Below, piece by piece: positions 1,827 to 50,880 of a DNA stretch of 64,000 nt (the stretch's first letter is position 1; each line of letters begins with the position of its first letter). The translations under genes were made by a program, and so were the position numbers. The notes beneath the pieces were generated by a model. That model worked only from the letters and a program-made list of their open reading frames with translations, was not told the origin of the DNA and searched no databases. Origin of the DNA: a virus (lineage: Duplodnaviria; Heunggongvirae; Uroviricota; Caudoviricetes); IMG/VR virus record IMGVR_UViG_3300044984_001938. One strand, written 5' to 3'.

Positions 1827-3656
1827 TTAAGTAAAATAGGGGTCTACAATGACTAGTGTACCATCTTTTCGTTGCATGACATTCTCAGTATGTAAGTCCC
1901 ACCTTAATCCACTTTCAAGACCAAGCCGATATAGTCTACTCATTGTTTGATACAATATTCCATATTGTTTATTAATCAATGGATCTGCTAATTTTTCAGT
2001 AACTGATTGAGGCATATTAGCCATACTAGGTTCAAGTTCCCAAGTCTCTGGTTTCTTCATCCTATTAACGACAGTATTCCAAGGTGCTCCGCCCTTGGCT
2101 TCGTCACTGAGCAACCACACCATTGCCTCTTCAAAACTATTATTCGGTATGGACTGTAGTCTCTCCATTGCAATTTGTCTATAGGGAACACCATTGAGTT
2201 TAAATACAGTATGATGTTCTCCACCAATAGCTATGAATTTTGGCAAGTTAGGTAACTCCGGATGATCTTTACAGAAGTTGTAAAATGCCAAGAATCCCCG
2301 TTCAGCATCTTGTGCTGGTCCGGGAACTGCTCTAGATGGCATTAAAATTTTAACCACTGACCCTTCATCCTTTGACCAAACAGTTGCATCTTGACCAGAA
2401 CCTAACATGGTATATTTAAGTTGCTTCAATCTATCAAAAATCTGCAGGCTATTGTCAGTTTGAGTTTCATATTCATTTAGTGTTTCCTCGTTGGCGTCTT
2501 GTTCTAATTCTGCTTCGTCAACCGGACTCTTTGTTGCCCAAAAAGTTTTCCCCAATGCAGTTTGTTTGCTGCTCGGTAAAATATCATTTCCCAATTCTTT
2601 AGCAAATTTATACATAGCAGTAGCTATCCCACGCCTTCTATGTTTGTTATCAACATGCAAATCAAGAGCCTCGATATGATCGTCTTTAATTTCAAAATTA
2701 ACCCAACTCACTTGGTTCTTTCCAACAAATGTTTTTATAGTAAATTGTTCACTGGGTTCATTGAATTTTTGATGCAGAAGAAATCTCCCGGGTGTGGCTA
2801 CCATTGTATATTTGCCAAAAGTTTTTACTTTTTCAAACCCACGCTTGAAAATATCTGGGTTAACTTTTTCAACGACCGTTTCGTCATTATCACTTTGCTC
2901 TAAATCTGCTAAATCAACATAATTGATAGGCACCCCCTTAATTGCAGCAGCTAACGCACGATGATTACCATCAATAATTCTGTTATCTGCCACTACAATA
3001 ACTTTACTTGCTAGTGCTGGATCATTAGTATATGATTGTACAATTGCTTGTTGGTCATCATCCAACATATCAGTTATTTCATCAATATGTTCTACCCGAT
3101 ATTGACCAAGCAATGTAATCATTACTTTATGTCTTTGTAATGTTTGAATAGTTAATGGTTTATCAAACTCATGCGGAGATACATAGTCCCAAAATTGGTC
3201 ATCACGATCTGGATAGTTACCTCCGTATAGTTGAGCTAGAGTAGTAGAGTTAGTCCCATCTTCTTTCATTAGATGCTGTGCATCACCTGACTTCTCCCAT
3301 GCTGCCCACATTGCCTTCCCGTCAGGCGATTGCTCTCTACTGGGACGAACATCATTGCCTAACATTTTGGCGTATGCGTACATTGTACTAGCAACACCAA
3401 ACTTTCTATACTTTTCAGCTACCCATGTGTTCACGCTTTCCAAATGACCGTCACCGCTATCTTGATTTATCTTAAACAAAGCATGAGCAATGCGAGTATA
3501 TCTATTAAAAACATTTACTCGTAACAAATTTCCACCATAGTCGCTTTCGCCAGCCTCTGCCGTGTAAGTAAAATTGCCGATTTCTTGAGTATCTGTAAAT
3601 CTTAGATCACGGATATCTGGATTAATTTCCTCGTTTATGAATTCTTTTGCTCTCAT
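1827..3656 (-). CDS. CTS-like-tagged multidomain protein: GNAT-like, ParB/Srx-like nuclease and protein-kinase-like C-terminal domains
   Basis: The N-terminus MRAKEFINEE resembles the T4 capsid-targeting sequence. VIVVADNRIIDGNHRALAAA is a ParB N-terminal-like motif. HRRRGIATAMYKFAKELGND and TMYAYAKMLGND are GNAT-like acetyl-CoA-binding motifs. The C-terminus has a Gly-rich loop (GSGQDATVWSKD) and DLHTENVM resembling the kinase catalytic loop. Confidence 0.6.
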   Translation of the reverse strand: MRAKEFINEEINPDIRDLRFTDTQEIGNFTYTAEAGESDYGGNLLRVNVFNRYTRIAHALFKINQDSGDGHLESVNTWVAEKYRKFGVASTMYAYAKMLGNDVRPSREQSPDGKAMWAAWEKSGDAQHLMKEDGTNSTTLAQLYGGNYPDRDDQFWDYVSPHEFDKPLTIQTLQRHKVMITLLGQYRVEHIDEITDMLDDDQQAIVQSYTNDPALASKVIVVADNRIIDGNHRALAAAIKGVPINYVDLADLEQSDNDETVVEKVNPDIFKRGFEKVKTFGKYTMVATPGRFLLHQKFNEPSEQFTIKTFVGKNQVSWVNFEIKDDHIEALDLHVDNKHRRRGIATAMYKFAKELGNDILPSSKQTALGKTFWATKSPVDEAELEQDANEETLNEYETQTDNSLQIFDRLKQLKYTMLGSGQDATVWSKDEGSVVKILMPSRAVPGPAQDAERGFLAFYNFCKDHPELPNLPKFIAIGGEHHTVFKLNGVPYRQIAMERLQSIPNNSFEEAMVWLLSDEAKGGAPWNTVVNRMKKPETWELEPSMANMPQSVTEKLADPLINKQYGILYQTMSRLYRLGLESGLRWDLHTENVMQRKDGTLVIVDPYFT

Positions 3657-4345
3657 TAGTTGGCTCTTTCCGGATCATACATCGGGTGATCTTGATTATA
3701 TTGCTGTCTTACTCTCACAGGAACATTGTATTGAGTTTTTTGATAACCTAGTTCTTGTTTAACTTCTGTTCTTGGGTCACGCAATATAGCATCCCATGTT
3801 GCTTTCATTTTGGGATCCTTAAACCAATTATTCTGCATCAATTTATCATTGACCGATACATCATAATGCTGATCCGGATCATCACCAGGTTTGTAGCTAT
3901 AGCGATACATGGGATGCTCACCAGGCGGGGTTGGCTTTATGGTGCGCTTTTTAGGCAACCATATTTGAATCTTTTTCACATATTTTCTAAATGGTTTCAA
4001 TCCACCTTTGATCAATGTTTCAAATCTATCTGTGTCTAGGGAATCGTCTCGGCGTTGAAATTCGTCTCTGGCATCTTCGGGTGGTTCACCTTTGAACCAA
4101 TCAGTGCCGGGCATTCTTTTGCGTCCTATGTCTCTACGCAACAAATCTTGGTCTAATGTGAATATTACACCACCGCTATCAAAGTTTTTCAAGTACCCAA
4201 GTGCATAGTTATAATTGCGGGTAGTGCTGACATCCTTACCTAATCCCATTTTATCATTATGCCACATTTGTAGCATACTAGGTATGCTAGTAGCATGATA
4301 TAAATCGGCTGCTTGCAATTCGTTTAGAAATTCTTTTGCTCTCAT
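3656..4345 (-). CDS. CTS-like-tagged hypothetical protein (putative head-internal protein)
   Basis: The N-terminus MRAKEFLNELQ belongs to the same family as the neighbouring genes. The ATG overlaps the stop of the upstream gene (ATGA). Confidence 0.5.
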   Translation of the reverse strand: MRAKEFLNELQAADLYHATSIPSMLQMWHNDKMGLGKDVSTTRNYNYALGYLKNFDSGGVIFTLDQDLLRRDIGRKRMPGTDWFKGEPPEDARDEFQRRDDSLDTDRFETLIKGGLKPFRKYVKKIQIWLPKKRTIKPTPPGEHPMYRYSYKPGDDPDQHYDVSVNDKLMQNNWFKDPKMKATWDAILRDPRTEVKQELGYQKTQYNVPVRVRQQYNQDHPMYDPERAN

Positions 4346-5208
4346 TACATTACAAAAATTTGCCCCACTGAACTTGATAATACATCATCAAACATATATT
4401 TCATATCGTTTGCTAGTGTTTGGGTAGCCTCTGCCCTTTCGCCTTCATCACGATATTCAGGTTTGATGTTCATATACTTACTAGAATTGCCCCAGTTCTT
4501 ACGGCCATAACCCAAGTTGCCTGGTAATGGGTTGAATGAAACAGTACCAGTACCTAAATACTGTGCAAAAAGTTCGTATAGAAATTCATATGGTCGTTTG
4601 ATTTCACCACCGCGACTACTACGCTGTGTGCCAATTGCATTAAATAGTGCGTTGTATTCAGGTGTTAGGTCCCATTTAATAGCAGTGCTATAGGTAGTTG
4701 CCCCGCGATATACTTTACCGTAATATTCTTCTAACATAGTATTGACTGCTGTAAAGAAATGTTTTTCTGCTTCTGCCCATGTACTCCATTGACTTTTTCC
4801 ACGAGTACCGGCTTGAATAGCATGACCAAATCTATGTGCCATGATCCATGGTGTCATCATCACTTTACTATCACCACTGTTACCAACAAAAACCACAGTG
4901 ATTGCATCTTCGCTGCCATCTATAATCGGTTGTGCTTGTTCGCCAAACATCTGTTGAAGTTGTTGTGCATTGACAGGGCCAGTCTCCTTGTACTTACCTG
5001 TGCCAGGTATGTTACTAAAGAACAATCTAAAATCGTATGGAGTTCTCTCAAAGAACTTTGCTGTCTTTAATTGATTAGTAGGATGCGGCACTAATCGCTT
5101 GTCAACACCTCTGAATGGTCCGGGTTTATCAAAGTCGCCCATTGGGGTGAATTGTTTAAGTGCCATCTCATCGACGGTGTTCTCTGATATAAAGTCATTT
5201 GCTCTCAT
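4345..5208 (-). CDS. CTS-like-tagged hypothetical protein
   Basis: The N-terminus MRANDFISEN fits the family. A HRFGH motif raises the possibility of a metal-binding or hydrolase site. Function is unknown. Confidence 0.5.
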   Translation of the reverse strand: MRANDFISENTVDEMALKQFTPMGDFDKPGPFRGVDKRLVPHPTNQLKTAKFFERTPYDFRLFFSNIPGTGKYKETGPVNAQQLQQMFGEQAQPIIDGSEDAITVVFVGNSGDSKVMMTPWIMAHRFGHAIQAGTRGKSQWSTWAEAEKHFFTAVNTMLEEYYGKVYRGATTYSTAIKWDLTPEYNALFNAIGTQRSSRGGEIKRPYEFLYELFAQYLGTGTVSFNPLPGNLGYGRKNWGNSSKYMNIKPEYRDEGERAEATQTLANDMKYMFDDVLSSSVGQIFVM

Positions 5209-5690
5209 TATAGTCCAATCTTGCCTGGATACATTGGGCCAGTTTCAATTTGTTCACCACCATCAAAGTACTTTATCTCAATGGGCATGGTCTGCCAGTT
5301 TAATCTATCAGCAGCCATGATACGATGATTACCTTCGTTGACCCAGGCTTCGCCATTGTAAGCTACCATGATGTATGGTAAGTATTCATTATCTGTACTA
5401 GACGACATGGGTGGCAATTTACCAGTCTTTTTCATGTAATCCATTAACCATGCCAAGTCATCTTTACGCACCTTGAGTTGTTCATTACGCAACCCCGGCA
5501 ATGAAGCCAAAACCTTTACACTTACACGAGGTGGTGTTCCTTTAACATAAGCGGTAGTACTACCAAAATGCGGTGCACCAAAACTGTCACGACCTTTGCG
5601 TTGAGCATATTCTATTTTACCTTGTAACCAATCCTCATTGGGAACATCTATCCTCAGGGTACCTTCAGTGATGAATTCATTTGATCTCAT
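5208..5690 (-). CDS. CTS-like-tagged ParB/Srx-like domain protein
   Basis: The N-terminus is MRSNEFITEG. VNEGNHRIMAADRL is a ParB N-terminal-like (DGNHR-type) motif. Confidence 0.5.
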   Translation of the reverse strand: MRSNEFITEGTLRIDVPNEDWLQGKIEYAQRKGRDSFGAPHFGSTTAYVKGTPPRVSVKVLASLPGLRNEQLKVRKDDLAWLMDYMKKTGKLPPMSSSTDNEYLPYIMVAYNGEAWVNEGNHRIMAADRLNWQTMPIEIKYFDGGEQIETGPMYPGKIGL

Positions 5691-5694: not shown

Positions 5695-6252
5695 CTATTT
5701 ATAGGGTTTGGCCCACCTGGTATTGATCACATTCCAGTTTATGATCTTCCACTGTTCGGTTAAATACTTTTTCTTGTCTGAACCGTAGTCCAATATCCAG
5801 GCGTGTTCCCATCGGTCAACTAATAACAATATATCATCGCGTACTTCATGGTTCTTGATCGTTTTAATCTTACCATCAGTCGCTAAGTATACCCAACCCG
5901 ATCCTTCTAACTTCATAAATTCAGTTTCAAATTCAGACTTCATGTTATCATAATCACCATAGTGCTTATTGATGAATCCAAACATAGGGCCGTTGGGTTT
6001 GTTATTGTTTCTTACTTCACGGAATTGAGGGAATAAGGTGTTATGCAAAAAAGCACCTGCATAGTTGAAATCTCTGTCACCCTCTTTTTTGTTGTAGCGT
6101 TCAGCGTAACCGTGGGCTAGTTTCCCGTAGTGTAGATCCAATGTATCTTTGGATAGAACGGGACTAACTTCAGCCGGAGTGAAGTTTAGTGGTATAATTT
6201 CTATGTCTTGCGGTTTACTCTTTTCCTCAAGTAACTGGATTAAATGTCGCAT
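5695..6252 (-). CDS. Fe/Mn superoxide dismutase-like protein
   Basis: All four canonical metal-ligand positions are recognisable: LHYGKLAH and FLHNTLF (His), and DRWEHAWILDY (Asp and His), ending in NWNVINTRW. This is SOD_Fe_N plus SOD_Fe_C-like architecture at about 185 aa. Confidence 0.6.
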   Translation of the reverse strand: MRHLIQLLEEKSKPQDIEIIPLNFTPAEVSPVLSKDTLDLHYGKLAHGYAERYNKKEGDRDFNYAGAFLHNTLFPQFREVRNNNKPNGPMFGFINKHYGDYDNMKSEFETEFMKLEGSGWVYLATDGKIKTIKNHEVRDDILLLVDRWEHAWILDYGSDKKKYLTEQWKIINWNVINTRWAKPYK

Positions 6253-6276: not shown

Positions 6277-6489
6277 TTAAAGACGCCTAATTATTCTTCC
6301 CTTAGACAAATCATAAGGTGAAAATTCTACTGAAACTGTATCACCTAGTAATATTTTAATATCGTTCTTACGCATACGACCACTGATGTAACCAGTAACT
6401 ACATTACTTAGATTCATCTGTACTTTGAACATGGCATTGGGTAATACATCAATTACCTTGCCATCCATCTTAATTCCTTCTTCTTTCAT
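6277..6489 (-). CDS. infA: translation initiation factor IF-1
   Basis: 70 aa. The sequence is near-colinear with bacterial IF-1 (DGKVIDVLPNAMFKV...ISGRMRKN.IKILLGD.V.VE.SPYDLSKGRI). Confidence 0.9.
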   Translation of the reverse strand: MKEEGIKMDGKVIDVLPNAMFKVQMNLSNVVTGYISGRMRKNDIKILLGDTVSVEFSPYDLSKGRIIRRL

Positions 6490-7563: not shown

Positions 7564-8130
7564 TCAAGTTTTATGGATATACGGTCCATAAATCTTTTCC
7601 AGTTCATGGATAGTTTGTGCAGTATTAGCATCTTCATGCTTAACCGCGATACCACCTGCGTTGCTCCATGCTTCTAAATACTTACCAAAATCATCTACCA
7701 AAACATTTGGTTCACCATCTTGTGTGGCGTATTTGAACTTTCCACTGGTGAAAATAGCTTCACCACTTGTACCCGGATTATATTGATCTAACCAGTGTTT
7801 TTTACCGTCAATGCTGCTTTGCTTAAACGGGCCTCGTAACGGAGCAGACAACACAGTATAGGGAATCTTGTTATCTTTCAGCCACATGATAATACGCATT
7901 CCACCGGTCAATGGTTTCAAGTCTTTGAAAAATTGATAAATTTGTTCTGGACTAGAATTTGCTAATTCGTTGATAGCTTCTTCCGGATTTGGGATTGCTT
8001 TATAAGTTGAAACATTGTGTTTTTGTGCCCATGCTCCAAAAAAATCCGCTTGTACACCGTCCATATCTAGATACAAATGTGGCATTTTCGCTTCAGCCGT
8101 ATCTTCTAATAATTCTCTTATTTGCATCAT
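7564..8130 (-). CDS. 5'(3')-deoxyribonucleotidase, HAD superfamily
   Basis: The N-terminal LYLDMDGVQADF matches the DxDGV HAD motif I of 5'-nucleotidases. The protein is about 188 aa. Confidence 0.6.
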   Translation of the reverse strand: MMQIRELLEDTAEAKMPHLYLDMDGVQADFFGAWAQKHNVSTYKAIPNPEEAINELANSSPEQIYQFFKDLKPLTGGMRIIMWLKDNKIPYTVLSAPLRGPFKQSSIDGKKHWLDQYNPGTSGEAIFTSGKFKYATQDGEPNVLVDDFGKYLEAWSNAGGIAVKHEDANTAQTIHELEKIYGPYIHKT

Positions 8131-8250: not shown

Positions 8251-9081
8251 ATGAAACAATTACTCACACTCCTAATATTGCTGTTCTCGGCACTTGTCTA
8301 TGCACAATCTCCAACTTCAACAGTACCACTTTCCCCGGATATAGCCGCAATTAAGAAGAAAAATGTCTTGGTTGTAGCAATGACCAAAAAAGATAACCCT
8401 CCCTTCTTTAGTGGGGATGAAAAAAACATACGCGGGCTAGATGTTGAAATTGCTCAACGCATAGGGGTATTACTTGGGGTGCCTGTGGAATTTCGCAGAG
8501 ATGCAGAAAGTTTTGCCGATGTAGTTGAACAAGTTAGGTCTGGTGCCGCAGATGTTGCAGTAAGTAAACTGTCAATCACAGGTCCAAGACTACTTACAGT
8601 TCGCTTTAGTGATCCGTACATCAAACTCAAGCAAGCAATGATTATTAATCGCTTATGGCTAAGTCAACACGGTCAAGGCCGAGAAGTGTATGAAGTGATT
8701 AGAACATTTAACGGCAAGATATCTTTCATCCGTAACAGTAGTTATGATACATTTGCCCGTGCAAATTTCCCCAAAGCAATATATACTCCCGAAGATAGTT
8801 GGGATACGATTGTCAATAATGTAACTAGCGGTGCAATTGCTGCTGGATATAGAGATGAGTTTGAAATTAAGAAAATCTCATTTGAAAAGCCTAATGCAGC
8901 AATTACTACAAAAACTGTAACTATTTCTGACTCTATTGATAATATTGCAGTTGCAGTAAATATTAACTCACCCCAACTACTAAGCATAGTAAACTATGTA
9001 ATTAAAAATGATTACAGTAATATTGACACTAAAAAGTTAATGGACCGATACAAGGCTGAAAAGTCTCCTGTAAAGAAATAA
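8251..9081 (+). CDS. secreted periplasmic solute-binding protein (SBP family 3, amino-acid-binding-like)
   Basis: The signal peptide is MKQLLTLLILLFSALVYAQSP. Size (276 aa) and the VAMTKKDNPPFF..GLDVEIAQ..GV pattern are typical of polar-amino-acid-binding proteins. Confidence 0.5.
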   Translation: MKQLLTLLILLFSALVYAQSPTSTVPLSPDIAAIKKKNVLVVAMTKKDNPPFFSGDEKNIRGLDVEIAQRIGVLLGVPVEFRRDAESFADVVEQVRSGAADVAVSKLSITGPRLLTVRFSDPYIKLKQAMIINRLWLSQHGQGREVYEVIRTFNGKISFIRNSSYDTFARANFPKAIYTPEDSWDTIVNNVTSGAIAAGYRDEFEIKKISFEKPNAAITTKTVTISDSIDNIAVAVNINSPQLLSIVNYVIKNDYSNIDTKKLMDRYKAEKSPVKK

Positions 9082-9093
9082 TTAGGAAATAAA

Positions 9094-10380
9094 ATGAAAT
9101 TTAATTTAAAAAACTTCTTATCTAGTCCGTGGACTATTTTAGGATCAATCATAATCGGAGTGTTGGCAGGAGTACATGCACCTGCATTAAGTATGAACTT
9201 TGAAAGTGTTGGTGGAATTTACATTAGCTTGCTTAAAGTTGTTGTAGTACCTTTCTTGCTTGCAACAATTTTAGTTGGGGTTGTTAGTCTTTTACAGAAA
9301 GAAGGCAGCGCCGCAATGATACGAAAGATTATCATAGGCTTCATTGCAAGTATGTTCATTGCCGCAGTGATAGGAGTTGGTACTGTTGCTGTTACCGGCA
9401 GTGAAATGACACCTGCAAAACAATCTCAACTTGGTGCAATTGTCAACGATAAAGATTCTGGTAGTGATCTAAACATCACTCTAACAGAACCCATGCCCAA
9501 GGCTCCACATATTGATCCAATACTGATGGCACAAAAGTTTATTCCGGAAAACATCTTTAACACCCTGGCTGCAGGTGAAAGTTTAAAGATTGTTATCTTT
9601 TGTTTGATATTTGGTATTGCACTGGGCAATATTAAAAGTTCTGGACAAGAAATGCTAGTAGATGTATTGAAAAGTGTACAACAGGCCAGCATCAGTATCT
9701 TTAAGTTTTTAAACTACTTTCTACCGTTTGCTTTATTAGCAATGATCAGCAGTCAAGTTGGTAAAGTTGGAGTTGGCATATTCTTGACCATGGTTGAGTT
9801 TATCATGCAACAAGCAATTGGTGGATTCTTAATTATTGCACTAGGTACTGTTGTCATCTGGAAGCGTTCAGGTCTTAGCTTGATGACTGTTATTCGTGAA
9901 ACCAAAGAAACACTAATTGTTGCGGTTAGCTCACGCAGTAGTTTAGCATGTATCCCATACGCACAAGAAGCATTGCATAAGTTGAAATTTGACAAAACAG
10001 GTGTTGAGTTAACTGTTCCGCTGAGTTTTACAGTTAATCGTATTGGTAGTATTGCGTATTATGCAATTGCCACAGTGTTTATTGCCAACATTTATGGGGC
10101 TCCAATGGGAGTAACCGGGTTGTTAGTTGTATTGTTTGGTAGTATTCTTGCTGGGCTAGCCAGTGCAGGTACAACAGGTATTCTTACAGTTGCTACCGTA
10201 GCAGTTGTTTGTGATTTATTAAAACTTCCAAGTGAAGCAGTATTGGTATTGTTGATTGCAGTTGATCCATTAATGGACATGATTCGTACAGCAAGCCATG
10301 TACACGGTAATGTGGCTGTGACCGCTTTCGTGTGTGATAAAGAGCCAGAATATGGACAAGATCAAAGAGTTACTGCTTAG
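9094..10380 (+). CDS. dicarboxylate/amino acid:cation symporter (DAACS, GltP/GltT-like)
   Basis: 428 aa polytopic membrane protein. The glycine-rich hydrophobic segments and the DPLMDMIRTASHVHGNVAV region are typical of sodium:dicarboxylate symporters. Confidence 0.65.
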   Translation: MKFNLKNFLSSPWTILGSIIIGVLAGVHAPALSMNFESVGGIYISLLKVVVVPFLLATILVGVVSLLQKEGSAAMIRKIIIGFIASMFIAAVIGVGTVAVTGSEMTPAKQSQLGAIVNDKDSGSDLNITLTEPMPKAPHIDPILMAQKFIPENIFNTLAAGESLKIVIFCLIFGIALGNIKSSGQEMLVDVLKSVQQASISIFKFLNYFLPFALLAMISSQVGKVGVGIFLTMVEFIMQQAIGGFLIIALGTVVIWKRSGLSLMTVIRETKETLIVAVSSRSSLACIPYAQEALHKLKFDKTGVELTVPLSFTVNRIGSIAYYAIATVFIANIYGAPMGVTGLLVVLFGSILAGLASAGTTGILTVATVAVVCDLLKLPSEAVLVLLIAVDPLMDMIRTASHVHGNVAVTAFVCDKEPEYGQDQRVTA

Positions 10381-10957
10381 TTTATTAAACTACATAGGTG
10401 AAAGTCCATTTCGCTTATTCACGGTTATTCTATTATGTGTACTGGGATTTGGCGGATGGATCATATACTCAGAAAAAGATGCGTTTATTGCTAGTTATCG
10501 GGCTCAACAGGCCATGCCAAAGATGAATGGCCGATATGAGGATGCACATAACTTTTTGCTGAAAAACACCACTGCTGAAATGGTGGCTATATTAGAAGTA
10601 AATACACTTTCAAATACAAGAAAAATAGCATTTTTATCTACCCGCGGCGCCGGTAGAGATAAAAATCACGATGGTGTTAATGTTGGGTTGTTCTCAAAAA
10701 ATTATGATAACAACACCGATGTGATCAGTTTAATGTCGGGTAAAATTCCCTGTAGTTCATATCTCAAACCGCAAAGTTTGATTGGATTTGTATATCGTGA
10801 TTATGGGGTGAATTTCATGTGCAGAATCAGTGTACCGGCTGAACCCGGTGTTTTCATTGGACAAATAAGTGTGGGTTGGAAAGAACCCCCAGACAACATA
10901 GAAGAAATTCAAACCGCTATGATGATTGCTTCTTCAATACTGTATAGTAAGAAATGA
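10352..10957 (+). CDS. hypothetical membrane-anchored protein
   Basis: The ORF 10334-10957 has one N-terminal TM helix (FRLFTVILLCVLGFGGWIIY) followed by a soluble domain. The start is ambiguous. It overlaps the symporter end. Confidence 0.35.
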   Translation: MDKIKELLLSLLNYIGESPFRLFTVILLCVLGFGGWIIYSEKDAFIASYRAQQAMPKMNGRYEDAHNFLLKNTTAEMVAILEVNTLSNTRKIAFLSTRGAGRDKNHDGVNVGLFSKNYDNNTDVISLMSGKIPCSSYLKPQSLIGFVYRDYGVNFMCRISVPAEPGVFIGQISVGWKEPPDNIEEIQTAMMIASSILYSKK

Positions 10958-11012
10958 TACTTCCTTCTATTATCAGTGTTGTGTTACTAGTGATACTAAT
11001 ATTGGTGTTAAT

Positions 11013-11726
11013 ATGAGCAAGCGGCTTGGTGTATTGGGTGGTATGGGGCCTGCTGCTTCAGCCGAATTTATGGTAAGACTGATTGCTCAAACTCCGGCAA
11101 AGCGTGACCAAGACCATATCCCTGCAATTCTTTGGAGCGACACCACAGTTCCAGACCGTAGCACTAGTATGCGAAATGGTGATGACAAACCGTTACCCTA
11201 CCTGTTAGCGGGAATACAAGGATTAATATCAACCGGTTGTAATATAATTGTTATACCATGCAATACTGCACATTTTTGGTTTAACGAAATGGAAAAACAA
11301 GCATCGTGGCATGCTAAAATTGCTCATATTGTAGATAGTGTTGCAGATGCATTAAGAGACATAAAAGTTACTAATGCTAAAATAGGCGTCATGGGTACAC
11401 AAGCAACTATTGAGTTGGGTATGTATCAGTACCGTCTAAATAAGTTAGGTTGGGATTGTATTGCACCGACTAAAGAAGAAATGGATACACTAGTACAGCC
11501 TGCCATTGATTTAATTAAAGCCAATCAGATTGCAGAAGCATATCCAATGTTAATGACTGTAATTCATAGTCTTATTGACAAAGGAGCAAAAGCAGTGGTA
11601 TTAGGCTGCACTGAAATACCACTGTCTATTAAAGAAGATACAGTACAGGATACACCAATAATTAACAGCATTGACAGTTTAGTAAAGTCTGTTATTAAAG
11701 AATTCAAAAAGGGGAAACTAACATGA
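11013..11726 (+). CDS. aspartate/glutamate racemase family protein
   Basis: MSKRLGVLGGMGPAASAEF is the racemase N-terminal motif, and the second catalytic Cys sits in VVLGCTEIPL. The internal Met was chosen as the start because the track ORF at 10926 overlaps the upstream gene. Confidence 0.75.
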   Translation: MSKRLGVLGGMGPAASAEFMVRLIAQTPAKRDQDHIPAILWSDTTVPDRSTSMRNGDDKPLPYLLAGIQGLISTGCNIIVIPCNTAHFWFNEMEKQASWHAKIAHIVDSVADALRDIKVTNAKIGVMGTQATIELGMYQYRLNKLGWDCIAPTKEEMDTLVQPAIDLIKANQIAEAYPMLMTVIHSLIDKGAKAVVLGCTEIPLSIKEDTVQDTPIINSIDSLVKSVIKEFKKGKLT

Positions 11727-15938: not shown

Positions 15939-16129
15939 TCTTCAACTCCGAAAAGTTCTGTACCTGCCGCAACATGTCCGCTAGTAACTGCTTTACCGTT
16001 GCGTATAACCATTTCATTCCACATGCCTAATTCAAAGTTCCAACGAATGTATTGTTGATTAGGCAACTCGTACCATTTTCCGTCTCGGGGAGTATCGGCA
16101 AATTTTACTCTAGTTTCAACTTCGTTCAT
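15935..16129 (-). CDS. HFGVEE-family divergent member
   Basis: It begins MNE and ends LFGVEE. The middle region is divergent. Confidence 0.4.
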   Translation of the reverse strand: MNEVETRVKFADTPRDGKWYELPNQQYIRWNFELGMWNEMVIRNGKAVTSGHVAAGTELFGVEE

Positions 16130-16380
16130 TCTTCAACTCCGAAATGTTGTTTGATCTTGCCGACATAGGTTGAAGCAGGTTCACGATGATTTACTGCATT
16201 CTCTACAACACCTGCACATTCCTGCACAATCAACGCAGCGAACTTTTCTATTTGCTCTAATCCGTCTTGTTCAGAGTCAGCCAGGGCGTCAACCGTACCC
16301 CAGTAGTGTAGCAAGAGTGCTGGACCTAGTCTAGCCTGTAGAGCAAGTTGATTAATTCGTTCGTTCATTTTATACTCCAA
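16126..16380 (-). CDS. HFGVEE-family small protein (paralog 4)
   Basis: The internal start MNERINQLALQA is likely. The protein then runs ...EKFAALIVQECAGV...HFGVEE. Confidence 0.55.
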   Translation of the reverse strand: MEYKMNERINQLALQARLGPALLLHYWGTVDALADSEQDGLEQIEKFAALIVQECAGVVENAVNHREPASTYVGKIKQHFGVEE

Positions 16381-16857: not shown

Positions 16858-17091
16858 TTACTCCTTGAAATGTTCTATCACTGCGTCAGCAACATCAAGG
16901 TAAGTGTTCTGCGGGAAATTATTGGCCACAACCTGCATTGTTTCTTTGACAATCAGTTCGGCGAACTTTTCTAAATCACGATTAGCTGATTCAGGAAAAT
17001 CAATTGGGTTATCAGTGTTGGTATAGTGCGGCTGCTGTGTCTTCCACTCTAATCCAGCTTGCCGCGCAAGTTGTTTAATTCGTTCGTTCAT
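16858..17091 (-). CDS. HFGVEE-family small protein (paralog, ends HFKE)
   Basis: MNERIKQLARQA...EKFAELIVKE...EHFKE. Confidence 0.5.
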   Translation of the reverse strand: MNERIKQLARQAGLEWKTQQPHYTNTDNPIDFPESANRDLEKFAELIVKETMQVVANNFPQNTYLDVADAVIEHFKE

Positions 17092-19823: not shown

Positions 19824-20033
19824 TTAAACCCCAAAATGTTTTTTAATCGTTTTATCAATTCTCCGCTGATACCGTTCGTCGGTAAATGTTTGCGGAAACA
19901 GTTCAGCACATTCCCGCACAATCAACTGAGCAAACTTTTCAACAAAATCTTTACTGTACGGAATAGTCACAGGATATCCATCCGGACTTTGGTGTGATGC
20001 CTGTTCAGCAAGTGATAGAATTCGTTCGTTCAT
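19824..20033 (-). CDS. HFGVEE-family small protein (dispersed paralog)
   Basis: MNERILSLAEQA...EKFAQLIVRECAEL...KKHFGV. Confidence 0.5.
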   Translation of the reverse strand: MNERILSLAEQASHQSPDGYPVTIPYSKDFVEKFAQLIVRECAELFPQTFTDERYQRRIDKTIKKHFGV

Positions 20034-22138: not shown

Positions 22139-22726
22139 TTATGGACGCTTTTTCAGTACAGAATCAGACAAACCATATGCTACTGATTCGGCAGCACTCA
22201 GAAAATAGTCTCTTTCCATATCCTTAGCTAGTTCTTCATAAGTTTTACCTACACTATTGTGGTCAACATAGATTTGTGTAAGACTCTTTTTCATAGCTAA
22301 AATTTCTTTAACTTGAATTTCCATATCAGTAGCTTGTCCACGTGCGCCGCCTGAGGGCTGATGAACCATGTGCCGAGCATTTGGTAACATATAACGCTTG
22401 CCCTTAGCACCTGCTTGTGCAAGTAAACTTCCCATTGAGCAGGCCTGACCCATAACAATAGTCATAATATCGGGTTTAATGAATTGCATACAATCATATA
22501 TGGCCATGCCCGCCGTTACACTTCCACCGGGACTATTGATGTAGATAGAAATATCTTTATCTGCTTCACTTTCTAGGTAAAGCAATTGGGCAACAACTAG
22601 ATTGGCCATTTGATCATGTACTTCACCTTCAAGCAAAATAACACGGTCACGCAACATGCGGCTGTATATATCATACGACCTTTCACCTTTACTTGTTTGT
22701 TCTAAAACCATTGGGACTAGTGACAT
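22139..22726 (-). CDS. clpP: ATP-dependent Clp protease proteolytic subunit ClpP
   Basis: Near-colinear with bacterial Clp[17 protein letters not shown] carries the active-site Ser, [11 protein letters not shown] and [16 protein letters not shown] carry the His region. Confidence 0.9.
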
Positions 22727-22787
22727 AAGATTCCTTAAATAAAGTCTTATTGTACTGCAATCTCAAGCAGAAGTCAACTGATTGTGG

Positions 22788-23516
22788 TTAGTTACTTATC
22801 CAATCTCTGTTACGATACGGTTTACCATACATTGCATTTGGTAAATATCGTACAACTTTTTGTTTTACTCGTTTTATGATTGGATGTTCATGGTCATGAT
22901 TAAATGCTTTTAGATACATTCTCCAACTATTATAATTTCTTTTCTTACCGTACTGATCCTCGTCAAGATATTTGATTACATGGTCAGTGCTGTTTCTAAA
23001 ATTCCATAACAACTCACAAGCAATATTATATCCATATGCGTCAATCTCATCACTAGAACCCAAATATTCTTGTTCTTTACGCTGGCGAGTTCTTGGTGCA
23101 GTGCTATTATATGAGGGTAATCCGTTGAATTCTCTCCGGCGATATTGACGCATATGAATTATCTCATGCATTATGGTGTTTGATATAGTGCGACAAGTTC
23201 TAATAAAAATTTTATCAGTGATAGATATCAAATCAGTTTTGTTCTTGTACACCACTATTAATTCAATTGAGTTTTTGTTTTCTTTATCTAGCTGACTGTA
23301 GTAGGTGCCGCCAATCCAAGCACGGTTTCTGCCAACTTTACTATCTATCAATTTTTTTAATTTGACAGGTATCATCTGTTTTATATGATTACCTAGCAGT
23401 CTATGAAACTTTTCCATAGACATTGGGATGTTAATTATCTTAGGATGCAATTTCCAAATATATTCAATTAATTCGTAGCGATTGATTGAAGACCAGTCAA
23501 AATTGCAAGTTGCCAC
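22788..23516 (-). CDS. SprT-like / zinc metallopeptidase-like protein
   Basis: The HExxH motif MHEIIHM sits in a 242-aa protein. Confidence 0.35.
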   Translation of the reverse strand: MATCNFDWSSINRYELIEYIWKLHPKIINIPMSMEKFHRLLGNHIKQMIPVKLKKLIDSKVGRNRAWIGGTYYSQLDKENKNSIELIVVYKNKTDLISITDKIFIRTCRTISNTIMHEIIHMRQYRRREFNGLPSYNSTAPRTRQRKEQEYLGSSDEIDAYGYNIACELLWNFRNSTDHVIKYLDEDQYGKKRNYNSWRMYLKAFNHDHEHPIIKRVKQKVVRYLPNAMYGKPYRNRDWISN

Positions 23517-23529
23517 GCTATATTCCTAA

Positions 23530-25059
23530 TTATTTTCTCTTAGTGCGGGATCCAGTTTCTCTTGGCTTATTGACAGGATTAACAATATCTTTTGCAGATG
23601 TTGTTAATTCGTCTTTGCCTGCATTCTTTTCTCGTTTTGATCTGATAGTTGGGGTGCTAACTTCTTCATCATCCTTAGGCTTACCTGAACCCTTATCAAT
23701 TTTGAATGTATAGTTACCTTTTATACCAGTGCTATAATATGTTTTACCTGAAGATAGATAAACGCCCTTAATACTTTCACCAGGGTAAACAGTATTGAAT
23801 TCTTGTAAGGTCCATTTACCTTTGCCTTCACTTGCTTTAGTATAAACTTGTACCAACGCCCCGTTGTTTAATATATCAGCAGCGGCTGCACTAAATTTTG
23901 TCTTGTCGTTCACTTCTTTGGCTGCTTGGTGTGCAACCACTGCCATTAAATGATAGTATAAGTTTACATTCTCTGGATCATCGGTTCTGCGTTTTTGTGC
24001 TAATTTTAATAGATTTTCACTAAGACCCAATTGCTCTATATTGTCCATACTAACTGGACCAATTTTCTTAAATGCTCTAATCATTTCAGCATCATCAGGA
24101 CTGATGACACCATACTGCATACCTAACATTAGTGGTGAACTTGCTTGTCCGGCAGATCGTATAAGTTTTATCAATGAAACTACTTCACTGTGTTTTTCTA
24201 AGAATTTTTTACCATCAGATGTTTCTTCTAGTTGATTGATTTGATCAACCAGATTCTTTATGCTGGCAGTAGCACCATTGCCACCTTTTGTGCTAATTAA
24301 TACACTGTGACCATCACTCGTAGACAAAATGCTATCACTTAACCCTGCTGTCTTGCTATCATCAAAACTGATTAATGTTTTCTGAAATGTCCCGCCCAAA
24401 AACTTAGCCGCTGCTTCACCTGCGTTACCCGTGTATTGACCTTTTTGCAATGCAATTGGCTGTAGTATTTCACAGAAGTAATCACGGAATGCAGTAAAGC
24501 TAACTCCTTCAGGAGCATCAAATGTCATGGGTAATGGTTGACCCATTGCAATATTGTGTGCTACTTTATATAATGGATTGTTAGTTCCCAAACTACTAGC
24601 CAGTTGATTCATTAAGCTAGCGATAGTTAAATCAAGTTTATTAACTAACAAATCTTGTGGACTTAAGCCTGCTTCTGATTTAGCGGCAGCTTTGCTACTG
24701 AGCTTATAAGTTGACCCGTCTACAGTAAATGTATTTGATACTTTGTTGTCAGTTCTGGATGGTTTAATTTCTTGTAGATATTGTCCTATGGTAAAATTAC
24801 CAAATGAGATTAGTGCGAATCCACCTGTTCGTCCCGAACGACTGTTTTGCCAAACAATTCCAGGAACTTGTTTTTCAATTTCTGCTAAGGATTGATCTAG
24901 TTCTTCGGGTTTGTATTTTCCACCACTTTCTGGGAAGAATTTAATATCGTTGAATATTGCTTCTTCCCCGTTTTCATTTTTAAAAATCTCGCCGGGTTTA
25001 CGACCGGCTAAGCCAGTACTTTCAGTTAGTTGTTTAATTATATTAATAAATTCACGCAT
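23530..25059 (-). CDS. hypothetical protein (509 aa)
   Basis: Long ORF on the coding strand. The N-terminus MREFINII loosely resembles the CTS-like family. No catalytic motif recognised. Confidence 0.5.
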   Translation of the reverse strand: MREFINIIKQLTESTGLAGRKPGEIFKNENGEEAIFNDIKFFPESGGKYKPEELDQSLAEIEKQVPGIVWQNSRSGRTGGFALISFGNFTIGQYLQEIKPSRTDNKVSNTFTVDGSTYKLSSKAAAKSEAGLSPQDLLVNKLDLTIASLMNQLASSLGTNNPLYKVAHNIAMGQPLPMTFDAPEGVSFTAFRDYFCEILQPIALQKGQYTGNAGEAAAKFLGGTFQKTLISFDDSKTAGLSDSILSTSDGHSVLISTKGGNGATASIKNLVDQINQLEETSDGKKFLEKHSEVVSLIKLIRSAGQASSPLMLGMQYGVISPDDAEMIRAFKKIGPVSMDNIEQLGLSENLLKLAQKRRTDDPENVNLYYHLMAVVAHQAAKEVNDKTKFSAAAADILNNGALVQVYTKASEGKGKWTLQEFNTVYPGESIKGVYLSSGKTYYSTGIKGNYTFKIDKGSGKPKDDEEVSTPTIRSKREKNAGKDELTTSAKDIVNPVNKPRETGSRTKRK

Positions 25060-47141: not shown

Positions 47142-48332
47142 ATGAGATTTAATGAAATTATATCCGAAGCAGGTAGTCCTGCCCAACAAGCAGCAATTGC
47201 AATTGCCATGAAAAAAGCTGGAAAGAAGCCAAAGCAAGGTGTGGCGGAAGGCAACCTAGAAGAAATTGACCGCAGAGGATTCTTAAGAGGCTTGGGTGCG
47301 GCCACTGTGGCAGGTGCGACTAATAATGCAATGGCTGCTCTAGGGTCACCTACTGCTCCAAGGGCACAGGTTAAAGTGCCGCCTGTGCCACAGTTACCCG
47401 CACGAGACGGTGATCTAGGTAATGGCAATAGAGTAACAACAAACAAAGATGGTACTAGAACTTATTCTGGCGGGTTTGGTTCATTTACATACAATGCTCA
47501 GGGTAAGGCTATAACATATAGTAGTCCTAACTTTAATGGATCTGGCCAAACCATCGACTTAACTACTAATCAAATTACGCAAAATTACAATGCAGGACCA
47601 TTGAAGATTAAACAAACTACCGATGCTACCGGTAAGCAAGTAGCGGCTGATAAATCATATGATCTTGGTGCAGCAACTGTCAGACAGCAAACCGACGCAA
47701 CGGGGAAAAATACTAACACAGCTTATGTTCCAATGGATGATACAACTCATGTTGTAGATAAACCAACCCTTAGAAAAGCCTTTGCGAAATGGCTGCCGGA
47801 AGGCTCTGAGGCAAGTGATAATCTAGTATCCACACTGAATTCTTTCGGATATTACTCTGACAACAGTAGTGTTTATGCAAATGATGACGGTGATAAGATT
47901 GTTCGTCAAGGTTCTAATTGGAAACATCAAGATGGTCAACGTGGTACTGGTGCTGAAGAATTAGGTAATTTCCTCAGTTCACAAGAAGTTGATGAAGGCG
48001 AAACTTGGTCAAAGCATAACAACCCAAGAGCAGGTGGGATGAGTAAAAAGTCTGTTAGTAGCTATCGCCGCAGTCATCCTGGTAGCAAGATTCAAACAGC
48101 GGTAACAACTAAGCCAAGCAAACTTAAAAAAGGTAGCAAGGCAGCAAAGCGTAGAGCTAGCTTTTGTGCCAGAATGCGTGGAATGAAGAAACATCGTACT
48201 GGTGCAAAAACAGCAAGAGATCCAAATAGCAATATAAATAAAAGTTTGCGTAGATGGCATTGCGAAAGCATTGAAGAACTACATGAATTAGTAATGCTTG
48301 CTGAACAATTTATTAGGAATAACAAGAAATGA
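47142..48332 (+). CDS. CTS-like-tagged protein with Tat-like RRxFLR motif and basic C-terminus
   Basis: The N-terminus is MRFNEIISEA. An internal DRRGFLRGLGAATVAGATNNAMAA segment follows. The C-terminal region is Lys/Arg-rich. Confidence 0.5.
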   Translation: MRFNEIISEAGSPAQQAAIAIAMKKAGKKPKQGVAEGNLEEIDRRGFLRGLGAATVAGATNNAMAALGSPTAPRAQVKVPPVPQLPARDGDLGNGNRVTTNKDGTRTYSGGFGSFTYNAQGKAITYSSPNFNGSGQTIDLTTNQITQNYNAGPLKIKQTTDATGKQVAADKSYDLGAATVRQQTDATGKNTNTAYVPMDDTTHVVDKPTLRKAFAKWLPEGSEASDNLVSTLNSFGYYSDNSSVYANDDGDKIVRQGSNWKHQDGQRGTGAEELGNFLSSQEVDEGETWSKHNNPRAGGMSKKSVSSYRRSHPGSKIQTAVTTKPSKLKKGSKAAKRRASFCARMRGMKKHRTGAKTARDPNSNINKSLRRWHCESIEELHELVMLAEQFIRNNKK

Positions 48333-49984
48333 ACTTCAAAGAATTATTAGAAGGCGCAGAGCCAAAGTTGCCGGGCGCCCCAAAGGGTATCTCAATTATG
48401 ACACCTCAGCAATTTGTTGCTAGTGCTGGTGATATGCCAGATGAAGAAGTAGATGAAGGCAGATTTACACATGGTCCAGGTGGCGTTCCACTTGATCGCC
48501 AGGGTAATCCCAAGGTAGCAAAGCCAGCTATGCCTAAATTATCAAGAATGTCTGCACCAGAACCTAAATTAGATTTAGATAAGATTTGGTTTGATGTTAC
48601 TCAGATCATCAGCAACATTTTCCCAGATGGTGATCCAGCTGACTACTTGCCAAAGTATGCCCGCAAACATGGGATAACATATGATGATATTCGCGCAGCA
48701 GCTAAAAAGAATGGTTATGAAGATGAGTATGCTTACATTGATGATATGAAAACCGGTGACTATGGTTATGATGAGCAAAGTTTAGCGGAAGGTGAAGAAC
48801 ATCTAGCAAGAATTCGTAGTCTATCTGGACTAGATGAAGCAACTAAACTACCAGCACAAACTCGTGACTTAAAGGGTCAAGAGTTTCAAGATTACATGAA
48901 ACGAATCGTTGGTACTCCCGATGTAGATAAAGCAGGCAATGTTAAAGTAGATAAAAAGGGCAATGAAAAATATACAACTGGTAAAACTAAAGGTGACAAG
49001 TACAAGATGCCTTACATCCATCGTAGTAGTGTAGTTACATACTTAAGTCCAGATGGTAAAACATACGATGAAGATGCTGTTAAACAAACATTAGCAATTC
49101 GTCCCAAAGCATTACTTAAACAAAACGAAAAGATGAAGCACAGCAATGGTGAGTTTGAACAATTCTTTAATGTTGGGTTCGCGGCATTGGTAGGTATTGC
49201 ATTAGATGAACAAACAAATAATCTAATTGTTGTTAACACATGTCCAGGCGCCGGCTCTTGTAAAGTTGATTGTTTCGCCATGAAGGGCGGCAAGATTCAA
49301 TTTAAGGCTGCATGGCAAAGTGACGGCAGAATACTTACATATCTGTTGAATGATCCAGATGGTTTCTTTAATCAACTAAGCAATGAAATCTCTGCTGAAT
49401 CACAAGAGGGTGCTGCAGGCGATAAGAAATTCCCCAATGGATGGAAAGTAACGGTTCGTTGGCATGATGCCGGCGACTTCTTCAGTCCAGAATACTTGGA
49501 TATGGCATTAAAAATGGCTGCTAAACATCCTGATGTTAGATTCTATGCGTACACTAAGATGGCAGGAGCAGCATTAGCTAAGAAGCCAGATAACTTCATC
49601 ATCAATTGGAGTGAAGGTGCTAACACCGAGCAAGAGAAACAAGTAAAGGCTCAGGATCCTAAATTAGATAAGACAAAGAACAGTCGTATTGTTCCAGAGA
49701 AACTATTCTATGACTTATTGGCCAAGGATGAGAAGGGTAACTTGAAAAAGACGGATGACGGAGCATGGCAACCTGCTGATGACGCAGCACTTAAACAAAT
49801 GAAACAACGAATTGCTAACGAATACGGCATTAGTTCTTCAAGTATTTTAAGTTATAATGAATATATGTCTAAGAGAAATTCAATTCCAGCTGGAATGAAG
49901 TACAATGTTATCGTTGCACCGGGTGAAGGTGATGTTAGTGCGAATGATCCTGGTGTATTGAGTACCCTATTGTTAAGACATTAA
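48329..49984 (+). CDS. CTS-like-tagged hypothetical protein (551 aa)
   Basis: The N-terminus is MNFKELLEGA. ATGA overlap with the preceding gene. Confidence 0.5.
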   Translation: MNFKELLEGAEPKLPGAPKGISIMTPQQFVASAGDMPDEEVDEGRFTHGPGGVPLDRQGNPKVAKPAMPKLSRMSAPEPKLDLDKIWFDVTQIISNIFPDGDPADYLPKYARKHGITYDDIRAAAKKNGYEDEYAYIDDMKTGDYGYDEQSLAEGEEHLARIRSLSGLDEATKLPAQTRDLKGQEFQDYMKRIVGTPDVDKAGNVKVDKKGNEKYTTGKTKGDKYKMPYIHRSSVVTYLSPDGKTYDEDAVKQTLAIRPKALLKQNEKMKHSNGEFEQFFNVGFAALVGIALDEQTNNLIVVNTCPGAGSCKVDCFAMKGGKIQFKAAWQSDGRILTYLLNDPDGFFNQLSNEISAESQEGAAGDKKFPNGWKVTVRWHDAGDFFSPEYLDMALKMAAKHPDVRFYAYTKMAGAALAKKPDNFIINWSEGANTEQEKQVKAQDPKLDKTKNSRIVPEKLFYDLLAKDEKGNLKKTDDGAWQPADDAALKQMKQRIANEYGISSSSILSYNEYMSKRNSIPAGMKYNVIVAPGEGDVSANDPGVLSTLLLRH

Positions 49985-50880
49985 TGAGAGCAACTGAATT
50001 TATCGCAGAAGCAATACTAGATGAAGCAGCTACTGCTATTGTCTACCATTATGCCGGTGTATCTGCTGCTGCAAAAATTCTAACTACTGGAGTTTTTCAA
50101 TTAAGTAGTGTCACAGGTAACTCTAGTGAAGAACAATATGCACCGCCGGGATATCTTTACTTTCTAAGCACAACTCGCAGCAAAGTGGGAGACTATCACC
50201 GATATACTGGTAGCAGCGCCGCTATGTTTGTAATTGATGGGAACTGGTTAAATCGGCATTACAAAACAAAAGCAATTGATTATTGGGAAAGGTCTTGGCA
50301 ACATAGTAACGGTACTCGTACCAGTGAAAGCGAAGATAGAGTATTTTCAAAGACACCTGAAATTCCAATTAACGGAGTAATTGCTGTTCATGTTTTGCTC
50401 AAAGAACAGAGCGAAAATCGTAGCCCCGAAGTTAGAACAATTTTAATCACTGCCAAGAAGCAAGGTATATCAGCTTACTTATACACAGATGAGAAGGCAT
50501 GGCGTTTACAAGATACCCGCAAAGCAGTTACTCCCGGTGACGCTGCTAAATTGCTTAAAGGACAACAACCAAAAGGTTACACACCAAGTCGTCCGCCGAC
50601 AATGTACCTTGAACCGTGGGTAGAACTAATATATAAAAACAAAAAATCAGATTTAACTAGCCGTGCTGAAAAGTTGCGATATGAATTAGTCTACTATGGC
50701 AGTAGACGTCCAGATTCCGATAGTAATCTTGGTGTAGATATGAGCAATGCTCGTAAACCTAATTCTACTGATTATCCAACTGCTGTTAAATTAAATGATT
50801 TTATGCGTAAGAATAAGTTACCAGATACAGTAGCACTTAAAAATATGCTAGTTGATAAATGGGTTAAAATTAAATCTTAA
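49984..50880 (+). CDS. CTS-like-tagged hypothetical protein (298 aa)
   Basis: The N-terminus is MRATEFIAEA. TAATG overlap with the preceding gene. Confidence 0.5.
   Translation: MRATEFIAEAILDEAATAIVYHYAGVSAAAKILTTGVFQLSSVTGNSSEEQYAPPGYLYFLSTTRSKVGDYHRYTGSSAAMFVIDGNWLNRHYKTKAIDYWERSWQHSNGTRTSESEDRVFSKTPEIPINGVIAVHVLLKEQSENRSPEVRTILITAKKQGISAYLYTDEKAWRLQDTRKAVTPGDAAKLLKGQQPKGYTPSRPPTMYLEPWVELIYKNKKSDLTSRAEKLRYELVYYGSRRPDSDSNLGVDMSNARKPNSTDYPTAVKLNDFMRKNKLPDTVALKNMLVDKWVKIKS

Follow-up and report, generated by a model that had tools for sequence, protein, structure and literature searches.

Why should seven genes of one phage, arranged in two tandem arrays and encoding largely different proteins, begin with nearly the same nine amino acids? 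The question is raised by a 64,000-nucleotide (nt) stretch of the IMG/VR record IMGVR_UViG_3300044984_001938, here called the window, whose source is an uncultured jumbo phage. An earlier sequence-only reading had reported four minus-strand and three plus-strand tandem open reading frames (ORFs) sharing an N-terminal peptide, and all seven are present at the coordinates and with the N-termini that it gave. We refer to them as P1 to P7 and to the shared peptide as the tag; bit scores are those of the position matrix described below.

5208..5690, minus strand: P4, 160 amino acids (aa), start MRSNEFITEG, tag MRSNEFITE at nt 5664-5690 (24.1 bits); first gene of the four-gene cassette
4345..5208, minus strand: P3, 287 aa, start MRANDFISEN, tag MRANDFISE at nt 5182-5208 (22.0 bits)
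3656..4345, minus strand: P2, 229 aa, start MRAKEFLNEL, tag MRAKEFLNE at nt 4319-4345 (24.5 bits)
1827..3656, minus strand: P1, 609 aa, start MRAKEFINEE, tag MRAKEFINE at nt 3630-3656
47142..48332, plus strand: P5, 396 aa, start MRFNEIISEA, tag MRFNEIISE at nt 47142-47168 (17.9 bits)
48329..49984, plus strand: P6, 551 aa, start MNFKELLEGA, 8-residue tag MNFKELLE at nt 48329-48352
49984..50880, plus strand: P7, 298 aa, start MRATEFIAEA, tag MRATEFIAE at nt 49984-50010

The genes of each array abut with TAATG or ATGA overlaps, and no obvious Shine-Dalgarno sequence precedes any of the seven ORFs.

We consider it likely that the nine-residue tag (M-R-A-x-E-F-I-x-E, with an eight-residue form M-x-x-x-E-L-x-E) is a capsid-targeting propeptide of the T4 type, probably labelling enzymes for loading into the head and delivery along with the DNA. 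In the proposed mechanism the tagged genes would be transcribed late, and the peptide would bind the scaffolding core of the assembling prohead, the attached protein becoming enclosed in the shell. A prohead protease of the gp21 family (Peptidase_S77) would then cut after the invariant Glu and free the mature enzyme inside the head, where it would be packed with the DNA and from which it would exit with the DNA at the next infection. Core binding, cleavage, presence in the virion, ejection and the action of the cargo in the host are steps that we infer from sequence.

A position matrix built on 129 non-redundant tagged N-termini from related contigs separates six of the seven ORFs from all other Met positions scored in the window. 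These six, which conform to M-R-x-x-[ED]-[FI]-[IL]-x-E, score 25.5, 24.5, 24.1, 23.8, 22.0 and 17.9 bits, and the best of the remaining 549 Met positions (555 scored) reaches −0.5 bits. Matches of at least 10 bits were found at 0 of 7,666 Met positions in T4-like loci and 0 of 1,578 in RaK2-like loci. The gap in the window together with the lack of matches in these loci rules out chance or N-terminal composition bias as the source of the tag. P6 scores −10.9 bits on the ungapped 9-mer matrix, and its N-terminus, MNFKELLE|GAEPKL, is a variant shorter by one residue. The same 8-mer type replaces the 9-mer among orthologues of P7, which start MRAxEFxxE|AATAIVYH or MRLQELLE|AATAIVYH, and of P3, which start MRAxEFxxE|xxVDEMAL or MKITELLE|STVDEMAL, and it is 13 times as frequent at N-termini as at internal Met. 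Because of this exchange and this N-terminal excess we regard P6 as a real but divergent member. P6 orthologues begin MKITELYEGAEPKL, and distant P6 homologues carry canonical 9-mers such as MKINEILLE. The statement that all seven share one decapeptide therefore holds for six of them, P6 having the divergent 8-mer form instead. A 509-aa ORF at 25059 on the minus strand (MREFINIIK) was rejected as a member; its matrix score falls outside the best 30, and the related loci contain no homologue of it.

How widely is the tag used? Related loci were gathered by searching with P3 and P7 and by scanning IMG/VR for a degenerate DNA pattern of the tag, a scan for which about 20 chance matches are expected by our own rough estimate. 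In 1.16 Mb of related loci there are 197 occurrences of a loose form of the motif, of which 182 lie at an ORF's first Met; for loci from the DNA-pattern scan, 187 of 199 tagged ORFs have it at the first Met, among the matches listed. The 3.0 Mb of related contigs contain 382 complete tagged ORFs (329 unique) in 120 architecture-level clusters. The logo reads M1, R2 (83%; K in 15%), A3 (67%), any residue, E or D5, F6 (77%, otherwise I or L), I, L or V7, any residue with T the commonest, and E9; positions 5, 6, 7 and 9 were preset by the search pattern and positions 2 and 3 were free. Information content is below 0.5 bit from position 10 on, with A, S and G the commonest residues at position 10. 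Like the T4 capsid-targeting sequence (CTS), the tag is a short N-terminal peptide on unrelated bodies, found on 120 body architectures and with conservation that stops at residue 9.

Tagged genes occur in runs, 65 of two, 14 of three, 13 of four, one of five and one of seven; in the related locus L060 seven consecutive tagged genes stand beside the polymerase gene. The content of the arrays varies among close relatives. Each module of P1 occurs elsewhere on related contigs as a separate tagged protein, and the P3 and P7 domains often follow other domains in fusion proteins, which then bear the tag at their extreme N-terminus (as in 29 of 33 long P3 homologues). A third tagged cluster of the window's phage lies directly beyond the window end and includes a 458-aa GH19 protein starting MRAIEFINE. 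Tagged bodies are basic, with a median isoelectric point (pI) of 8.17 as compared to 5.89 in untagged genes.

How close does the tag come to its T4 counterpart? The T4 CTS is MKTYQEFIAE, and these ten residues suffice to load IPIII or foreign proteins into the head. Experiments on the T4 CTS found residues 4 and 7 to be most important for targeting and residues 8 and 10 for processing. The T4 protease gp21 cleaves on the C-terminal side of Glu, as it does at ITE-6 and LTE-619 in Alt, and the CTS has been suggested as a general means of protein loading in T4-like phages. With a shift of one residue, E5-F6-I7-x-E9 of the tag aligns with E6-F7-I8-A9-E10 of the T4 CTS, and F6, I/L/V7 and E9 are the counterparts of the targeting residue F7 and the processing residues I8 and E10. 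The tag of P7 holds EFIAE exactly, the commonest tag ending, I-T-E, is identical to the ITE-6 site of Alt, and T4 Alt (MELITELFDE) and gp24 (MAKINELLRE) have N-termini of the same kind as the tag. The closeness to the T4 CTS that had been proposed is borne out, since the core E-F-I-x-E matches at experimentally mapped residues and the tag ends in the motif I/L-x-E↓, as gp21 sites do.

Both are peptides of about ten residues at the extreme N-terminus of otherwise unrelated proteins, and both systems have variable tandem loci, a cargo that combines an ADP-ribosyltransferase (ART), as Alt is, with basic proteins, and a lineage with T4-type portal, S77 protease and Gp23. The clade tag differs in being one residue shorter, MRAxEFIxE, with Arg2 and Ala3 in place of Lys2 and Tyr4, and in occurring in uncultured jumbo phages that share only 42-48% polymerase identity with isolated ones such as Phosso, Atu_ph07 and RaK2. 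Its cargo is far larger and more enzymatic than that of T4: there are 120 architectures, as many as seven tagged genes stand in a row, and some proteins are multi-domain, with 600-790 aa. Part of this cargo has a twin-arginine (Tat) signal right behind the tag, and the function proposed for the tag is read from its sequence. The CTS principle is already known, and what this clade appears to use is a shortened, re-consensed form of it on a much larger enzymatic cargo. We found no paper describing the clade's tag or its strings. The phiKZ-like giants (SPN3US, phiKZ, 201phi2-1) also process many head-internal proteins after Glu with a gp21-related protease and eject them into the host, but they belong to another phage lineage and their propeptides, mostly 80-130 residues in length, have A/S-x-E motifs and lack a short common tag.

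Homologues of P7 are present in isolated phages. In the KVP40-like Vibrio phage D484 the homologue starts MKKFNEFAKELEE|AATDIVYHGTS, and its MKKFNEFAKE is a near-T4 CTS. The Alishewanella phage vB_AspM_Slicko01 (OQ508956.1, 141 kb) has eight tandem genes (L368:1875-7545) with a common 13-residue MKI[DE]xLYESxLxE, several of them with P7-like ART domains, in what looks like an independent, lineage-specific tag system. The Slicko01 and D484 systems have in common with that of the window a shared N-terminal peptide ending L-x-E, tandem arrays and P7-like ART proteins; they differ from it in having their own consensus and length and in belonging to cultivable phages, of 141 kb and 253 kb. The two can be read as a link between T4 and the tag of the window.

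Does the lineage have the head genes that such a signal would serve? The RaK2-like phage K64-1 encodes a gp21 homologue (34% identity), and its head module has the order portal, 76-aa ORF, acidic protein, protease, scaffold, capsid. Single-sequence scans with T4 gp21 and then with the K64-1 protease returned only near kin of each query, and an alignment query was needed; it identified hundreds of environmental contigs with proteases 43-52% identical to that of K64-1. More than 7,900 close protease homologues were found, and PF03420 (Peptidase_S77, the gp21 family) was matched by all 120 listed relatives of one lineage protease. The protease P0271 lies on contig Ga0485269_000009 of the Joint Genome Institute (JGI; 352,012 bp, sample 3300046787), in a module annotated T4_baseplate, Phage_lysozyme, Portal_T4, Peptidase_S77 and Gp23. 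IMGVR_UViG_3300046787_000200, which comes from the same sample and has the same 352,012 bp, carries four tagged genes in succession, with a P7 homologue and a GH19 protein among their products, and six further contigs have a tagged ORF at most 10 kb from the protease. The small ORF between portal and scaffold, whose position corresponds to T4 genes 67 and 68, itself starts tag-like, with MRAKDLLVEF, MKAKDLLVEF or MFLREFIYFD. No prohead protease was found in the first 73 related loci, and synteny with K64-1 fails in the flank past the window end. DNA overlap did not link the window to a protease-bearing contig, one 235-aa gene being all that is common to them (75-80% identity). This gene, for a membrane protein (L229:13924-14631 and L025:10844-11545, 80% identical), stands beside the head module in one lineage and beside the P3 cassette in the other, and it appears to move between loci.

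The timing of expression can be judged for one array. The T4 late-promoter consensus, TATAAATA, has only four copies in the window, among them:

5696..5703, minus strand: TATAAATA box, ending 5 nt before the ATG of P4
36758-36765, minus strand: another copy of TATAAATA

In 13 protease-bearing loci the box stands 5-7 nt before the ATG of the small head-module ORF. Of 66 boxes lying no more than 40 nt upstream of a gene start, in many loci (e.g. L197:8582, L224:2613), 32 end 5-7 nt ahead of the ATG, a spacing that implies nearly leaderless late mRNAs. Because the box precedes P4 as it does the head-module ORF, it supports late transcription of the four-gene P4-P1 cassette. P5 has no TATAAATA box upstream.

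What would be delivered? The cargo would be a variable, cassette-like set of mostly basic proteins: P7 and perhaps P2 as ARTs, P1 as a polyvalent protein, P4 as a ParB-like protein, P3, P5 and P6 of unknown fold, and a GH19 hydrolase past the window end. The sequence-only reading had proposed hidden Markov model (HMM) and structure searches of the protein bodies, and these matched domains in P1, P4 (weakly), P5, P6 and P7, with P3 giving no match. P1 contains, in order, GNAT-like, ParB-like (DGNHR), GNAT and protein kinase modules, the last like T7 gp0.7 or Kinase-PolyVal. It matches Acetyltransf_1 (E = 1.5e-7) and the T7 gp0.7-like kinase phrog_15752 (E = 4.4e-6), and scores 17.6 bits against Kinase-PolyVal, below the cut-off of 27. 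P1 thus has at least two disparate effector domains, as polyvalent proteins do. Against isolated phage genomes P1 matched only a GNAT fragment, and P3 nothing. The P2 body is basic (pI 9.1), and hhalign aligns P2 with the P7 family at 76% probability and E = 2e-5, over a stretch that includes the tag, so the N-terminal half of P2 may be ART-like as well. P3 is the most widespread cargo of the clade, with 617 homologues and an invariant HRFGH motif (H124-R-F-G-H128); its AlphaFold model (predicted local distance difference test score 80) has no match among solved or annotated viral structures. P4 has a ParB/Srx-like body with an NEGNHR motif and a weak match to the ParB-like phrog_1033 (E = 0.0044). 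P5 ends in a C-terminal DUF6321 domain (E = 1.9e-9), and P6 has a GP88-family domain (E = 2.5e-25). P7, with a basic body of pI 9.5, has an ART fold, nearest to Tpt1/KptA and DarT; its invariant residues are Y21-H22-Y23, R65, E115, E117 and R119. In the P3 model and in the confident AlphaFold model of P7 residues 1-14 are disordered, and the tag is accordingly predicted not to be part of the fold in either protein. A PDB sequence search matched neither P3 nor P7, and PADLOC matched none of the seven.

That there are enzymes among the tagged proteins, as had been suggested, is supported by the ART fold of P7 and by the GNAT and weaker kinase-like matches of P1, and beyond the window by GH19. 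The bodies, described as otherwise unrelated, are mostly so, except that P2 and P7 perhaps share an ART-like half and that P1 (DGNHR) and P4 (EGNHR) share a ParB-like motif with weak Pfam and PHROG matches. Over the 120 tagged architectures, Pfam matched DUF6321 (8), GH19 (7), GNAT (6), DUF6934 (4), NUDIX (2), LysM (2) and three ART families, with single matches to Kinase-PolyVal, ParB_N, Amidoligase_2, Phage_lysozyme2 and KTSC. The GH19 muramidase domain takes two forms in the clade, untagged endolysin-like ORFs of about 207 aa (L312:265-885, L336:9560-10186, L351:1558-2184) and tagged proteins with extra N-terminal domains (L247:4345-5718), as expected if the tag marks a different destination. 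A ferritin/Dps-like gene (L247:3905-4345) directly precedes this tagged GH19 gene beyond the window.

The tagged cargo resembles, by analogy, proteins known or predicted to be injected: ART, GNAT, kinase, ParB-like and NUDIX proteins and lysozymes. Iyer et al. (2017, PMC5512222) predicted packaging and injection for polyvalent proteins, and the domain vocabulary of those proteins is the same, with GNAT, ParB-like, Kinase-PolyVal, ART-PolyVal, NUDIX, Amidoligase_2 and lysozymes; P1 joins four such modules. Unlike polyvalent proteins, most tagged proteins have one or two domains and are no giant fusions, and they carry an explicit N-terminal address peptide; the passages of PMC5512222 found by term search describe no such N-terminal signal. 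Anti-defence is only one possible role of the cargo.

The same cargo raises the question of whether the tagged proteins need to leave the head at all. The tag might deliver them to the prohead and they might act there, in the core or scaffold, in condensing or modifying DNA or in head maturation, without being injected effectors. The basic tagged bodies resemble the DNA-associated internal proteins of T4, the small head-module ORF has a tag-like N-terminus, and T4 IPIII influences head morphogenesis. On the other hand, for ART, protein-kinase, GNAT, NUDIX and GH19 domains there is precedent for action on the host, in T4 Alt, T7 gp0.7 and the polyvalent proteins, and the fast turnover of arrays among close relatives looks like that of arms-race cargo. 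We consider action confined to the prohead unlikely, and sequence does not separate it from loading followed by delivery to the host.

For part of the cargo delivery might be followed by export. P5 has a Tat signal at residues 42-65 (nt 47265-47336; TIGR01409, 19.0 bits against a cut-off of 16.7), 32 residues beyond the tag, and one other protein likewise has a Tat signal 30-40 residues past its tag. In two GH19 proteins the signal follows Glu9 directly: MRINEIITE|DMSRRGFLGALGAGA…GH19 and MRAVEFIAE|IDRRGFLGAL…GH19. Six of the eight Tat-like ORFs in 3 Mb are tagged. Besides P5, ORFs with both tag and Tat signal include:

L009:11694-12374
L259:2992-3612
L052:6312-8558

A cut after Glu9 in the prohead would place the Tat signal cleanly at the N-terminus, and this suggests that export follows injection. 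The tag would then be the first half of a two-step address, for packaging and then Tat export: the enzyme would be injected with the DNA into the cytoplasm of the next host, whose Tat system would export it to the periplasm to act on the cell wall or envelope. We put this forward tentatively and regard it as doubtful. If it were true, the whole injected proteome of uncultured jumbo phages could be read from sequence alone.

The CTS interpretation as a whole is supported by sequence, structure-prediction and context evidence, comprising the match to T4, the shape of conservation, the disorder of the tag, its modularity, the head genes of the lineage, D484 and the cargo. Several observations weigh against it. 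The T4 targeting residue Tyr4 is not kept, the tag having Ala3 there. No protease belonging to the window's genome was found in the window or in the ~8 kb flank past its high-coordinate end. Clustering of tagged genes beside the head module is rejected for the L229-type lineage, whose abundant relatives have 0 tagged ORFs within ±10 kb of the protease (803 kb). No virion proteome of the phage or of its uncultured clade was found. The TATAAATA box shows no general enrichment upstream of tagged ORFs (2.3% vs 1.7%) and is documented for one cassette only, and a Tat signal behind the tag is unforeseen by a plain picture of injection into the cytoplasm. Two further points, a codon excess and a phage-encoded Clp set, each bear on a rival explanation.

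The codon excess concerns Arg2, which is encoded by AGA in 87% of tags as compared to 54% at position 2 of untagged genes, a difference that hints at some mRNA-level selection. The tag could be an mRNA- or DNA-level element, serving as an initiation enhancer for coupled genes without Shine-Dalgarno sites, as a microhomology for cassette recombination, or as both, with a peptide that has no function. Tagged ORFs do have fewer Shine-Dalgarno-like sites than untagged ORFs (13% vs 30%) and more stop/start overlaps (24% vs 13%), and the arrays differ among relatives like shuffled cassettes. Yet it is the amino acids that are conserved. At positions 5-9 the choice among synonymous codons follows that of gene bodies (GAA 73-77% vs 80%, TTT 73% vs 69%, all three Ile codons occurring), and selection is therefore on the peptide. 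The 8-mer and 9-mer forms, moreover, keep the L/I-x-E ending despite differing nucleotides. A recombination role would be compatible with a CTS role, as proposed for T-even internal-protein loci. We judge a purely nucleic-acid element very improbable.

The second point is that ClpP, ClpX, ClpS and Hsp20 are encoded in the window, of which ClpXP and ClpS could read N-terminal tags; ClpX can recognise N-terminal motifs that begin with Met and a basic residue. The tag could thus be a degradation or adaptor signal read by the phage Clp machinery and timing destruction or unfolding, with no involvement of the capsid. Counting against this, ClpS reads N-terminal F, L, W or Y and not Met-Arg. A Clp signal also leaves unexplained why conservation breaks off sharply at a Glu with small residues behind it, why the tag agrees with the T4 CTS at experimentally mapped positions, and why the head-module ORF starts tag-like and the P7 homologue of D484 carries a near-T4 CTS. 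We give this explanation very little credence.

Head-packaged proteins are normally learned of only through virion proteomics of cultured phages. If the tag is a T4-type CTS, a nine-residue rule would read the head cargo of a very abundant group of uncultured jumbo phages straight from metagenomes. It would yield a catalogue of more than 100 candidate early effectors for host takeover or anti-defence, spanning DarT/Tpt1-like and other ARTs, GNAT/kinase fusions, NUDIX proteins, cell-wall hydrolases and several folds without known relative. The tag would also supply a concrete packaging signal for the polyvalent protein hypothesis, show the T4 CTS, so far a T-even curiosity, to be in general use across the wider T4 superfamily, and offer new short tags for loading foreign proteins into large capsids.

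Two further genes of the window are possible members, both with low confidence:

7564..8130, minus strand: NT5C 5'-nucleotidase with a 17-residue N-terminal extension, (M)MQIRELLE, of the 8-mer type
5695..6252, minus strand: Fe/Mn superoxide dismutase (SOD)-like protein with a conserved 16-residue N-terminal extension, MRHLIQLLEE, with MR…L-L-E at positions 7-9

Orthologues of NT5C start MKIKELFEN or MKINDLIES, one is without the extension, and the internal Met16 could be the true start. All orthologues of the SOD-like protein begin MR[DE][IL]IxLLE, and the matrix score of the window copy is only −7.9; it has a Sod_Fe_C domain, and its Sod_Fe_N match begins at residue 18. ATAAATA variants stand before both genes.

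The window has a G+C content of 38%, and near-identical DNA was found in none of the isolated phages. The family-B DNA polymerase that it encodes at 60792-63497 on the minus strand shares 42-48% identity with its counterparts in Sinorhizobium phage Phosso, Agrobacterium phage Atu_ph07, Vibrio phage 2.275.O and the RaK2/K64-1 group, phages with genomes of 345-490 kb. Genes identical to those of the window are found on JGI metagenome contigs from samples 3300046000-3300046011 and on IMG/VR fragments, and the cluster of a protein identical to P3 takes in a 234,546-bp contig.

Among the neighboring genes, host-like housekeeping functions stand near the four-gene cassette on the minus strand (1449-1775, 5695-6252 and 6277-6489), encoding IscA-like Fe-S, Fe/Mn-SOD-like and IF1-like proteins. 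A host-like island on the opposite strand (8251-11726, plus) encodes a periplasmic solute-binding protein (SBP_bac_3), a sodium:dicarboxylate symporter (SDF), a 201-aa ORF and an Asp/Glu racemase. The Clp set lies on the minus strand at 22139-28239, with ClpP at 22139-22726 (E = 1e-76), ClpS at 26117-26422, Hsp20 at 26484-26936 and ClpX with a zinc finger at 27037-28239. Four small ORFs of 69-80 aa on the minus strand (16126-16368, 16858-17091, 19824-20033 and 39793-40002) start MNE[RQ]I and have an inner EKFAxLIVxEC; they are paralogues over their whole length, and their common start is not a tag. Genes of the 7-deazaguanine pathway occupy 53534-56807 on the minus strand, with GTP cyclohydrolase I at 56133-56807, a PTPS/QueD-like gene and a radical-SAM QueE-like gene at 53534-54382, and an ATP_bind_3 (QueC-like) gene is located past position 64000; the presence of this pathway suggests that the phage DNA is modified.

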